Assembly (NCBI RefSeq): GCF_003334785.1
Contig: NZ_QOWV01000006.1
Length of the DNA stretch: 64,000 nucleotides
Strand: one strand, 5' to 3'
DNA from: Escherichia coli
GTDB taxonomy: Bacteria > Pseudomonadota > Gammaproteobacteria > Enterobacterales > Enterobacteriaceae
Shown here: positions 28,434 through 29,434 of the stretch, one piece after another
Layout of the letters: every line of letters starts with the position of its first letter
Position numbering within the stretch: the stretch's first letter is position 1
Program-made: the position numbers and the translations under genes
The notes under the pieces: generated by a model
Databases searched by the model: none
What the model was told of the DNA's origin: nothing
What the model saw: the letters and a program-made list of their open reading frames with translations, nothing else

Positions 28434-28770
28434 AGAGTCAATTGGCGCGCATTATACGCTGAAATTAATCCAAAAGGAAAACAAAAACAGCGTTTCAAAA
28501 AATATACAACTTGTTAGACAATAAATTGTTATCAAAGATTTAACGTTCCAGGGAAAAGGTTACGCAAAAACTTCACTGTTTGCGCAACGTCTGGTGCCGA
28601 AGTTGTCAGTGTGAGGATAAGTGAAAGTTCATCCGGTGTATAAATATATCATCGCTCAATTGCTACAGTTAAAATAATTTATCGCGTTATTTGTCTGATT
28701 TTGTTTGATTTTTGTTTAATTGGTTAGATTGATATATGCTGATAGTTGGCATGATAAATAGGTATAAAGA

Positions 28771-28980
28771 ATGGGAAATCGGACAAAAGAGGATGAACTG
28801 TACCGAGAAATGTGCAGAGTTGTCGGTAAAGTTGTGCTGGAAATGCGCGATCTGGGGCAGGAACCAAAGCATATTGTTATCGCAGGCGTATTACGTACAG
28901 CATTAGCCAATAAACGCATTCAGCGCAGTGAGCTGGAAAAGCAGGCGATGGAAACCGTCATTAACGCACTGGTAAAATGA
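28771..28980 (+). CDS. fumD: Small protein YdhZ (fumarase D)
   Basis: ORF track 69 aa MGNRTKEDELYREMCRVVGK...; recognised as YdhZ. Confidence 0.85.
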   Translation: MGNRTKEDELYREMCRVVGKVVLEMRDLGQEPKHIVIAGVLRTALANKRIQRSELEKQAMETVINALVK

Positions 28981-29220
28981 CCATTCAGGATGAGGCGGTA
29001 AGCTTCATCCTGATATTCTTGCTTCAGTTGCGGTCCAGTTAATCATTCTAAATAACAACTGCTGAAATTATACGAATTTCGGTATGTATTTTAATTTATA
29101 GCGATAATGTTATTTTTATTTTCTGCAATGAAAGTCACAAATAATTGTCGCTTAAGTTAAATTTATTTCAAATGATAATAAATATCAGTTCACTTATAAT
29201 TTCTTGCTTTGTAATTTTAA

Positions 29221-29234
29221 TTGATAACGATCAA
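29221..29234. promoter_or_regulatory. FNR-consensus site upstream of ydhY
   Basis: Perfect TTGAT-N4-ATCAA (TTGATAACGATCAA), 201 nt upstream of the ydhY ATG. Confidence 0.7.
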
Positions 29235-29434
29235 TGTTAAGGGCTCAGAATAATCACATTATTTTTTCTCCTAACCATAAAGGATTAGTTTATCGGCGTT
29301 AATCTTTTCTCATACACTATCGGGTTAGGGAAAATATCTGGTGTTGGGGACAGAGTCAGCAGCGTATTAGTTGAATGCTTAATATCAGGCTGCTGAATTG
29401 TCAGCACTGTGTTTGCGAAGAGGATGCGAAATAA

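Follow-up and report, generated by a model that had tools for sequence, protein, structure and literature searches.

An AT-rich, H-NS-covered intergenic region as probable shared control DNA of pykF, fumD and the ydhYVWXUT operon in Escherichia coli

The interval 28440-29434 (hereafter the island) lies between pykF and ydhY in a 64-kb stretch of DNA, the window of this analysis, which corresponds to E. coli K-12 and is the reverse complement of the MG1655 chromosome at approximately 1.72-1.78 Mb. Window positions 1-47866 match MG1655 at 99.99%, with zero mismatches in 24001-32000; an indel of approximately 73 bp relative to MG1655 is found beyond position 47,866. The features of the locus are listed in Table 1. 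An earlier note on this DNA had described fumD as the only gene of the island, which is correct for 28440-29434 itself, where no other gene is annotated (fumD scores 153 bits against NF007630, with a cutoff of 82), but ynhH was overlooked, sitting just outside, 24 bp to the left and between pykF and fumD. No match to ynhH was obtained among the NCBIfam HMMs. The two reading frames antisense to fumD mentioned in the same note (28687..28872 and 28716..28919) do exist as mechanical ORFs, and were rejected as genes, as they belong to no NCBIfam family and are absent from the RefSeq annotation.

Table 1. Features of the pykF-fumD-ydhY locus (window coordinates) and the basis of each assignment.
Feature	Coordinates	Strand	Basis and remarks
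ynhH	28222..28416	-	RefSeq-annotated in MG1655 (b4817) and further strains; small gene in pykF leader
Cra/FruR-like candidate box GCTGAAACCATTCAAG	28420..28435		Left island edge; differs from a 16-nt Cra consensus at 3 positions
pykF-side part of pykF/fumD spacer	28440..28690		35.1% GC
Probable pykF -10 hexamer TATAAT	28452..28457	-	Sequence inspection
Candidate fumD promoter TTGTCT-18-TTTAAT	28691..28720	+	RpoD genomic SELEX proposal (Shimada, 2014)
fumD (ydhZ), 69 codons	28771..28980	+	NCBIfam equivalog NF007630 and RefSeq annotation
fumD intrinsic terminator	28985..29013	+	Terminator scan; 12-bp stem, then T-rich tail
Published promoter island 1752593_318 (ydhY/ydhZ)	29026..29343		Panyukov and Ozoline, 2013, Table 1; 28% GC
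Fur-box-like candidate TCAAATGATAATAAATATC	29168..29186		Centre approximately -93 from ydhY TSS; 14/19 to Fur consensus
FNR box TTGATAACGATCAA	29221..29234		Perfect TTGAT-N4-ATCAA match; class II position, -42.5
Probable ydhY -10 hexamer CATTAT	29257..29262	+	Position relative to FNR box and TSS
ydhY 5' leader, approximately 165 nt	29270..29434	+	41% GC; from FNR at -42.5 and sigma70 peak at 29270
NarL/NarP 7-2-7-like site TAACCATAAAGGATTA	29272..29287		+3 to +18; 14/16 to TACYYMT-NN-AKRRGTA
Translation-initiation block, including SD GAGGA (29420-29424)	29398..29434	+	High conservation
ydhY, first gene of ydhYVWXUT	29435..30061	+	ORF and RefSeq annotation

The GC content of the island is 0.359 (35.9%), well outside the average of 0.502 (50.2%) across the 64-kb window, in agreement with the AT-rich island of approximately 1 kb proposed earlier. 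In a sliding analysis, only 0.08% of all 995-bp windows were as low in GC, and the lowest of them (0.357) starts at 28389, making this the AT-richest kilobase of the 64 kb; likewise, the 200-bp GC minimum of the entire 64 kb (0.22) falls at 29041-29240. The long A/T tracts that had been noticed were also found, with 15 A/T-only tracts of at least 8 nt in the island versus 3.4 expected from its length, and the 207 bp from the fumD terminator to the FNR box (29014-29220) display 24.6% GC (75.4% AT). This AT-richness is located in two long spacers, of 354 and 454 bp, on either side of the 210-bp fumD gene, with GC contents of 0.330 and 0.336 that rank third and fourth lowest among the 39 intergenic spacers of the window, after ydhI/slyA (0.315) and lpp/pykF (0.326). 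Both are only about 1.4 sd under the local intergenic mean (0.425, sd 0.065), and therefore part of the AT signal corresponds to non-coding status. In length, the 454- and 354-bp spacers are the longest and third longest of the 39 (median 137 bp). Thus, the locus is distinctive for the length of its two spacers and the mere 210-bp gene between them, more than for its GC rank. Coding sequences show GC values of 0.467 for fumD, 0.494 for ydhY and 0.48-0.53 for ydhV to ydhT, with a window CDS mean of 0.505.

On the pykF side, the pykF TSS would lie near 28445, with a leader of approximately 230 nt containing ynhH, and the strongest local sigma70 ChIP-seq peak (1,753,480; Myers, 2013, Table S1) maps to 28456. 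The Cra/FruR-like box and positions 28411-28490 are 90-100% conserved within Escherichia, while 28591-28670 are variable even there. The pykF-side part of the spacer has no sequence similarity in Citrobacter (identity 25-54%), and the block 28691-28750 is the sole part of the pykF/fumD spacer conserved in that genus (63-77%). The candidate fumD promoter would place the fumD TSS near 28727, and a further sigma70 ChIP peak maps to 28844, within fumD. PdhR was considered as a regulator acting in the island and discarded, since its published box maps within the pykF coding sequence, at 27941-27957. Downstream, a GC-rich hairpin was found right after the fumD stop codon in 19 of 19 species, with differing sequences and energies of -13 to -28 kcal/mol, followed in most of them by a T-rich run.

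The comparison of Escherichia and Citrobacter genomes showed fumD upstream of ydhY in the 24 loci having enough upstream sequence. The spacer between both genes measures 407-510 bp in 23 of these loci, the exception being one C. amalonaticus locus with a 1.2-kb gap; spacer GC ranges from 33 to 40%, the minimum 200-bp GC from 22 to 29%, and the FNR box is placed 155-241 nt from the ATG. Across most of the AT-rich core the identity is just 25-66%, and the A+T fraction holds at 0.66-0.80. Escherichia and C. sedlakii are alone in having the fumD-spacer-ydhY module next to pykF; elsewhere its neighbours differ, and one Citrobacter strain carries two copies of it. A search for close relatives recovered ydhY relatives solely from Escherichia, Citrobacter, Leminorella and Limnobaculum.

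The best defined element of the ydhY promoter is its FNR box, the single exact match to the consensus in the 64 kb (0.13 expected), which is present in 24 of 24 Escherichia and Citrobacter loci, with half-sites invariant in the 20 aligned sequences. According to Myers (2013), citing Partridge (2008), the box is placed at -42.5 and is positive in both ChIP and expression; the FNR ChIP peak reported there (1,752,706) maps to 29230, and a sigma70 ChIP-seq peak with an anaerobic signal of 177 versus 47 under aerobic conditions maps to 29270. The ydhY TSS used here is thus second-hand, taken from the -42.5 position and cross-checked against the ChIP coordinates. Around the probable -10 hexamer, all aligned sequences share the core CA.ATTAT. 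The centre of the FNR box lies 207.5 nt from the ydhY ATG (29435), which agrees with the separation of approximately 200 nt stated in the earlier note and is explained by the leader of approximately 165 nt, so that the long leader suspected at that time is supported by both the FNR position and the sigma70 peak. Binding of NarL/NarP and repression of the ydhY operon by nitrate and nitrite are reported by Partridge (2008). The 7-2-7-like element at the leader start may correspond to this activity; matches with 2 mismatches number 4 in the window versus 2.8 expected, a count not significant by itself, and the block CCTAACCnTAAAGGATTA at the site shows almost no variation in 19 of 20 sequences.

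Further inputs involve Fur and SlyA. In strain CFT073, the expression ratios of the ydhY operon are 0.07 for fur-/wt, 1.0 for ryhB-/wt and 0.11 for fur-ryhB-/wt, and the fur-/wt values of approximately 0.07-0.16 correspond to a positive, RyhB-independent effect of Fur. The CFT073 Fur ChIP-seq summit (1,910,890) falls at 29162, which is 15 bp away from the middle of the conserved Fur-like box, and K-12 and CFT073 do not differ over 29152-29201. Compared with the Fur consensus GATAATGATAATCATTATC, the box matches at 14 of 19 positions and includes a perfect GATAAT hexamer at 29174-29179; matches with up to 6 mismatches number 38 in the window, as expected for AT-rich DNA. Positions 29171-29190 show 88% identity over 19 sequences, more than any other block in the AT-rich core. 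Taken together, these data point to the box at 29168-29186 as the probable Fur site, and Fur may act there by antagonising H-NS. Regarding SlyA, its overproduction raised ydhYV-T expression 2.5-fold (Curran, 2017), and a sigmaS preference has been published as a further regulatory input. Hence the additional regulators anticipated in the earlier note can be named: Fur, SlyA, sigmaS preference, and NarL/NarP on the grounds of the title of Partridge (2008) and the conserved 7-2-7-like site.

The proposal that this is nucleoid-protein-bound regulatory DNA is backed by several published H-NS data sets. The anaerobic H-NS ChIP-chip region 1,750,995-1,753,982 (2,987 bp; Myers, 2013, Table S3) maps to 27954-30941; the ydhY/ydhZ promoter island, which falls within that region after coordinate mapping, is coded 'A', i.e., H-NS-bound in all ChIP studies (Panyukov and Ozoline, 2013, Table 1); H-NS binding at ydhYV-T is listed for datasets G, K and O (Curran, 2017); and the ydhZ/pykF spacer carries an HNS mark (Shimada, 2014). 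In addition, ydhU and ydhT are O2-regulated solely in an hns/stpA deletion strain (Myers, 2013, Table S11). For the FNR site of ydhY, Table S6 of Myers (2013) records 'None' under nucleoid-protein overlap, though the Table S3 region spans this site; FNR binds here in the wild type, which indicates that H-NS coverage is not fully occlusive. Scans for the H-NS high-affinity motif and the IHF consensus gave weak matches only, of the kind expected in AT-rich DNA.

Promoter islands, as described by Shavkunov, Panyukov and Ozoline, are H-NS-coated regions of approximately 70% AT in which promoter-like sites overlap in large numbers and productive transcription is scarce. Of the 78 listed, one is the fumD-ydhY spacer, which resembles the class in being 72% AT over 29026-29343 (the criterion being at least 300 bp with approximately 70% A+T), in its H-NS binding throughout the ChIP datasets and in its association with genes of putatively foreign origin. 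It differs in having a functional regulated promoter, with FNR and sigma70 ChIP peaks and anaerobic induction, in showing no excess of promoter sites in a simple sigma70 scan, and in its predicted curvature, which is not elevated. In that hexamer scan, 28100-29600 contained 5 promoter-like sites versus 3.9 +/- 2.2 expected, 3 of the 5 in 29026-29343; the islands were originally defined with another algorithm (PlatProm), and thus the promoter-island property depends on the algorithm of its authors.

Several explanations of the AT-richness were weighed. It is possible, although we hold it rather doubtful as the main cause, that it is a relic of horizontal acquisition, with fumD-ydhYVWXUT as a foreign module with AT-rich flanks subjected to xenogeneic silencing. 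The locus is flagged as foreign by GIST and by Nakamura et al. (via Panyukov and Ozoline, 2013), and both the restricted range of ydhY relatives and the changing neighbours and duplication of the module agree with such an origin. Against it, the coding GC of fumD and of ydhY to ydhT (0.47-0.53) is like that of the window; only the non-coding DNA is AT-rich, so there is no compositional island, and the AT content is kept across genera while the sequence diverges, which argues for maintenance rather than a relic. Acquisition complements, and does not exclude, the explanation by an H-NS control region. Plain mutational AT drift of non-coding DNA, i.e., composition with no selective maintenance, is improbable: four spacers of the window have GC contents of 0.34 or less, two of them below both fumD-flanking spacers, but two genera share the spacer length and AT content, the 207 bp from terminator to FNR box have 24.6% GC, the 200-bp GC minimum of the 64 kb falls within the fumD-ydhY spacer, and occupancy by H-NS, Fur, FNR and sigma70 has been measured at the fumD-ydhY spacer.

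Intrinsic curvature, which the earlier note had inferred, was not borne out. Phased A-tracts could attract nucleoid proteins and organise promoters, the island has many A/T tracts, and a somewhat stronger curvature than in ordinary promoters has been reported for promoter islands as a class (Panyukov and Ozoline). Curvature was calculated with the Bolshoy/Trifonov wedge model, with controls that behaved correctly (phased A6, 0.636; unphased, 0.033). The island reached a maximum of 0.118 and a mean of 0.053, versus a mean of 0.046 and a maximum of 0.135 in random sequence; 63% of island shuffles reach 0.118, their average being 0.136 +/- 0.038. The 15 most curved 120-bp segments of the window all lie outside the island, and the AA/TT periodicity at 10-11 bp was not above shuffles in the four sub-intervals (reaching fractions of 0.20, 0.98, 0.91 and 0.48). 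Curved DNA is therefore a very unlikely basis for this region, and AT-richness at fumD-ydhY does not imply curvature.

As for the leader, we give little credence to its acting as a riboswitch, attenuator or translated upstream ORF, in other words as a cis-regulatory RNA sensing some cofactor or metabolite of relevance to the oxidoreductase: it stays long across the loci compared, its final 37-45 nt are approximately 98% conserved (29411-29430 show 98% identity across Escherichia and Citrobacter), a weak hairpin could sequester the ydhY SD, and the TAA of a 19-codon ORF (29375-29434) abuts the ydhY ATG, but an Rfam scan of 27800-29800 returned no match at E<=1, the MFE z-score of -1.57 indicates a single-sequence fold that is not unusual, RNAalifold gives a covariation term of -0.73 kcal/mol and compensatory changes in 1 of 22 pairs, and the middle of the leader has indels, with approximately 70 alignment columns deleted in C. 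koseri. The upstream ORF was rejected as coupled to ydhY, its start being undetectable in 7 of 20 species and an SD absent. In 5 sequences, uncompensated changes disrupt the CCTAACC/GGTTAGG pairing, and so this inverted repeat is more likely protein-binding DNA.

With these alternatives considered, we favour with good confidence the reading of the island as AT-rich, H-NS-covered control DNA shared by pykF, fumD and ydhYVWXUT, with embedded FNR, NarL/NarP-like and Fur-like sites. Three transcription units would share it, pykF (with ynhH in its leader) leftward, and fumD and ydhYVWXUT rightward, and the two long AT-rich spacers that flank the monocistronic fumD are coated by H-NS in vivo as one extended region of approximately 3 kb, the AT-richness probably being maintained because it supports this coating. 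H-NS coverage would account for a low basal expression of ydhY, and we propose that the H-NS-covered AT-rich spacers also give the DNA its promoter-island score. Under anaerobiosis, FNR at -42.5 would recruit RNA polymerase; NarL/NarP bound at +3 to +18, on the DNA encoding the leader start, would allow repression by nitrate and nitrite; and the Fur-like box near -93 may mediate the RyhB-independent positive effect of Fur. The leader would then consist of repressor-binding DNA at its 5' end, a ribosome-binding region at its 3' end, and dispensable filler in the middle.

The ydhY promoter resembles the class II FNR-activated, NarL/NarP-repressed promoters dmsA, frdA and ynfE in its FNR position, in the NarL 7-2-7-like element near the TSS and in the anaerobic increase of sigma70; it differs from them in its unusually long leader, positive Fur control and extended H-NS region. 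Similarly to targets of SlyA/H-NS antagonism such as hlyE and fimB, ydhYV-T responds to SlyA overproduction and is listed as H-NS-bound, but unlike in those genes, the SlyA effect may be indirect. At the ftnA promoter, Fe2+-Fur bound upstream reportedly activates by displacing H-NS. The ydhY operon of CFT073 is comparable in its RyhB-independent activation by Fur, its Fur ChIP peak and its Fur-like box, which is placed in H-NS-bound AT-rich DNA ahead of both the activator site and the core promoter, and is distinct in having a single recognisable Fur-like box and in also requiring FNR; anti-silencing at ydhY is hypothetical. By analogy, we tentatively suggest that ydhYVWXUT might be governed by a three-condition gate on an H-NS-silenced platform, in which Fe2+-Fur at 29168-29186 would relieve silencing as at ftnA, FNR would recruit polymerase, and NarL/NarP would veto transcription; independently of this gate, the 37-45 nt ahead of the ATG, which hardly vary, might be the target of a post-transcriptional regulator.

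The region is already known as documented AT-rich regulatory DNA of E. coli, and is ordinary in this respect: occupancy by H-NS, FNR, sigma70 and Fur, as well as the dependence on FNR, Fur and SlyA, have been published. Shown here are the composition, the positions of the sites, an architecture conserved in Citrobacter, a terminator after fumD, and the lack of curvature and of RNA-structure signals. The locus is a well-documented regulated promoter in an H-NS-coated AT-rich spacer, and the importance of this analysis is mainly one of annotation. The entire architecture, including terminator, AT-rich spacer of approximately 410-510 bp, Fur-like box, FNR box, NarL-like site, long leader and ribosome-binding block, is common to Escherichia and Citrobacter. 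The RyhB-independent activation by Fur, previously unexplained, now has a specific candidate site and an anti-silencing hypothesis, and the inputs of oxygen (FNR), nitrate/nitrite (NarL/NarP) and iron (Fur) combine at an orphan aldehyde-ferredoxin-oxidoreductase operon.

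The AT-rich island around fumD is genuine: sliding-window analysis gave 35.9% GC for 28440-29434 vs. 50.2% for the whole window, with only 0.08% of all 995-bp windows in the 64 kb equally low and the global minimum at that length (35.7%) starting at 28389, in line with the conspicuous AT-richness described in an earlier note. The lowest 200-bp GC of the entire 64 kb (22%) lies at 29041-29240, and A/T-only runs of at least 8 number 15 in the island vs. 3.4 expected. AT-richness is restricted to the non-coding DNA of the region (fumD 46.7% GC, ydhY 49.4%, ydhV to ydhT 48-53%; mean of all genes 50.5%), and the proper baseline is the 39 intergenic spacers of the window (mean 42.5%, sd 6.5%), among which the fumD/ydhY and ynhH/fumD spacers are third and fourth lowest in GC (33.0 and 33.6%) and longest and third-longest (454 and 354 bp vs. 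a median of 137). The island is conspicuous at the 1-kb scale mainly because the short fumD gene alone parts two long AT-rich spacers; the 207 bp from the fumD terminator to the FNR box (24.6% GC) are extreme whichever baseline is used. The ydhI/slyA (62961-63160; 31.5%) and lpp/pykF (26492-26801; 32.6%) spacers are lower in GC than both island spacers, yet shorter.

Coordinates of genes and sequence features in and around the island (window positions)
Feature	Position	Strand	Remarks
pykF	26802-28214	-	
PdhR box AGCTGGTCAGACCTTTA	27941-27957	-	inside pykF coding sequence, ~260 bp from pykF start
ynhH	28222-28416	-	RefSeq b4817; 64 codons; in pykF leader, between pykF and island
Cra-like box, predicted	28420-28435		upstream of pykF
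TATAAT	28457-28452	-	upstream of pykF
Candidate constitutive fumD promoter	28691-28720		TTGTCT-18-TTTAAT (Shimada, 2014)
fumD (formerly ydhZ)	28771-28980	+	210 bp
Hairpin	28985-29013		12-bp stem and T-run, 3' of fumD stop codon
Fur-like box TCAAATGATAATAAATATC	29168-29186		14/19 consensus matches; centred ~-93
FNR box	29221-29234		TTGAT-N4-ATCAA
NarL/NarP 7-2-7-like element TAACCATAAAGGATTA	29272-29287		+3 to +18
Upstream ORF MLNIRLLNCQHCVCEEDAK	29375-29434	+	19 codons; TAA directly abuts ydhY ATG
Invariant block	29398-29434	+	
ydhY	29435-30061	+	followed by ydhVWXUT

Aligned to MG1655, the window corresponds to NC_000913.3 1,719,912-1,783,911 in reverse complement, with 7 SNPs across 64 kb and zero mismatches within 24001-32000, i.e., around the island; published positions were converted as U00096.3 = 1,783,912 - x and U00096.2 = 1,781,936 - x (x, window position). 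Because of these SNPs and a ~73 bp indel near 47,867-47,925, in REP-like palindromic DNA of the sodB/ydhP spacer, the window represents a close K-12 relative, not MG1655 itself. The island region was found in 5,426/5,426 complete E. coli genomes searched, with at least 95% identity in all save one record.

Published data place nucleoid proteins on this DNA. The ydhY/ydhZ segment 1752593_318 (29026-29343) is one of 78 E. coli promoter islands, was H-NS-bound in every ChIP study compared, and has been linked to putatively foreign genes (Panyukov and Ozoline, 2013), and an anaerobic H-NS ChIP-chip region of the 'extended' class (1,750,995-1,753,982; 2,987 bp; Table S3 in Myers et al., 2013) maps to 27954-30941, covering the entire island. 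In the latter work, ydhU and ydhT gained O2 regulation only in an hns/stpA deletion strain (Table S11), an FNR ChIP peak maps to 29230, and sigma70 ChIP-seq peaks map to 29270 (region signal: anaerobic 177 vs. aerobic 47), 28844 and 28456. Further, 'HNS' is marked in the ydhZ/pykF spacer (Shimada, 2014), ydhYV-T is H-NS-bound and induced 2.5-fold on SlyA overproduction (Curran, 2017), and a sigmaS preference in vitro has been reported (Maciag, 2011). For the FNR site of ydhY, Table S6 of Myers et al. (2013) enters 'None' under overlap with Fis, H-NS or IHF, whereas the Table S3 region spans the same coordinate, through inconsistency or differing criteria.

The DNA curvature also supposed in the earlier note was not recovered by the calculation that the note suggested as a check. 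The Bolshoy/Trifonov wedge model was run and validated with controls (phased A6 tracts, 0.636; A6 at 15-bp spacing, 0.033; random sequence, mean 0.046 and maximum 0.135). The island reached a maximum of 0.118 (mean 0.053), matched or exceeded by 63% of its shuffles; none of the window's 15 top-curvature segments of 120 bp falls in it, and its AA/TT 10-11-bp periodicity is not above shuffles. AT-rich as it is, the island DNA shows no detectable curvature. The strongest predicted curvature of the window falls at 19386-19505 (rydB/sufA spacer, z = 7.6), followed by 5031-5150, near the ydiP/ydiQ spacer (z = 6.1).

A YdhY search with one genome per species yielded 30 loci, mainly from Escherichia and Citrobacter, and also from Leminorella and Limnobaculum. 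Upstream sequence was sufficient in 24 Escherichia/Citrobacter loci, which have fumD ahead of ydhY; the spacer measures 407-510 bp with 33-40% GC in 23 of them, the exception being one C. amalonaticus locus, where the gap is 1.2 kb. The lowest GC over 200 bp is 22-29%, and a consensus FNR box stands 155-241 nt from the ydhY ATG. As pykF adjoins the fumD module only in Escherichia and C. sedlakii, outside which conservation upstream of fumD covers ~80 bp only (28691-28750), the conserved unit comprises the fumD promoter, fumD, its terminator, the AT-rich spacer and the ydhY operon. Across species, spacer A+T stays at 0.66-0.80 with just 25-66% identity to E. coli in most 20-bp bins; the persistence of composition without that of sequence speaks for AT-richness as such being maintained, which would most plausibly offer H-NS a platform. 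Against this background, identity reaches, by exception, 88% in the Fur-like block, 77-81% in the FNR box and -10 region, 91% in the NarL-like block and 98% in the final 20-45 nt before the ydhY ATG. Citrobacter sp. NCU1 carries two ydhY-ydhV loci, with fumD upstream of only one; the other, likewise preceded by AT-rich DNA, retains an FNR box, TTGATAATGATCAA, at a distance of 198.5 nt from the ATG.

The FNR box is the sole perfect match in 64 kb (0.13 expected). In the account of Myers et al. (2013), citing Partridge (2008), FNR sits at -42.5 of ydhY, which places the start site at ~29270 and gives a leader of ~165 nt. The 7-2-7-like element lies at +3 to +18 from this start, such matches being not significant by count in the window (4 found vs. 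2.8 expected). NarL/NarP reportedly bind and repress at ydhY. The ydhY promoter brings together activation by FNR at -42.5, this reported repression by NarL/NarP at +3 to +18, a positive effect of Fur, and H-NS/SlyA. Additional regulators are indeed published, namely SlyA (Curran, 2017) and Fur, with a ChIP-seq peak at ydhY and expression ratios of 0.07 (fur-/wt), 1.0 (ryhB-/wt) and 0.11 (fur-ryhB-/wt), i.e., positive, RyhB-independent control, the same pattern as ftn (Banerjee, 2020). The CFT073 Fur ChIP summit (1,910,890) maps to 29162, which puts it 15 bp away from the centre of the Fur-like box and 66 bp away from the FNR box, and K-12 and CFT073 are identical at 29152-29201; Fur probably acts positively through this box. 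At ftnA, Fur acts by antagonising H-NS, and it may, though less likely than not, do so at ydhY.

The ydhY leader is indeed long, and its length class is conserved; its 5' end is most readily taken for DNA that binds repressors, and its 3' end for the region where ribosomes bind. There is no sign of a structured riboregulator: the leader matches no Rfam family, its MFE z-score is -1.57, RNAalifold gave -9.0 kcal/mol (covariation term -0.73; compensatory pairs 1/22), and the repeat formed by 5' CCTAACC and downstream GGTTAGG is broken by uncompensated changes in five sequences. Approximately 70 mid-leader alignment columns contain indels and are missing in C. koseri. The upstream ORF has no SD and no conserved start (in 7 of the 20 species a start giving 8 codons or more could not be detected), and its C-terminal part falls in the invariant block. 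This block, which makes up the 37-45 nt that precede the ydhY ATG, is ~98% identical across Escherichia and Citrobacter, its conservation extending far past the SD while the neighbouring leader varies freely, and is a possible sRNA or protein target. In E. coli strain C9, an IS1 with a frameshifted transposase, flanked by a 9-bp target duplication, is inserted at 29373-29381 in the variable mid-leader, an insertion that should cut ydhY off from its FNR promoter.

Directly 3' of fumD, every species compared has a GC-rich hairpin, differing in sequence and mostly followed by a T-rich run; the terminator is therefore conserved, which supports a monocistronic fumD and a ydhY with its own promoter. 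A weak anaerobic sigma70 ChIP-seq peak at 28844 (1,753,092; Myers et al., 2013) falls within the coding part of fumD, 125-150 bp past the promoter proposed for that gene; it could reflect this promoter, poorly resolved, or else one that is internal or antisense. On the pykF side, the candidate constitutive promoter TTAACT-18-TATATT (Shimada, 2014) was also recovered by a promoter scan, and the minus-strand TATAAT coincides with the strongest sigma70 peak (28456). The PdhR box was placed in the 'fumD/pykF spacer' by Anzai et al. (2020); mapping puts it within pykF. The ynhH gene, absent from the earlier note, has no NCBIfam HMM match and is labelled merely hypothetical protein in some genomes.

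Taken together, nucleoid-protein binding, the long leader and extra regulators hold from the earlier interpretation, and curvature does not. Coated by H-NS, the island is the region from which pykF/ynhH, fumD and ydhYVWXUT are controlled; it is already known, and ordinary regulatory DNA of E. coli.
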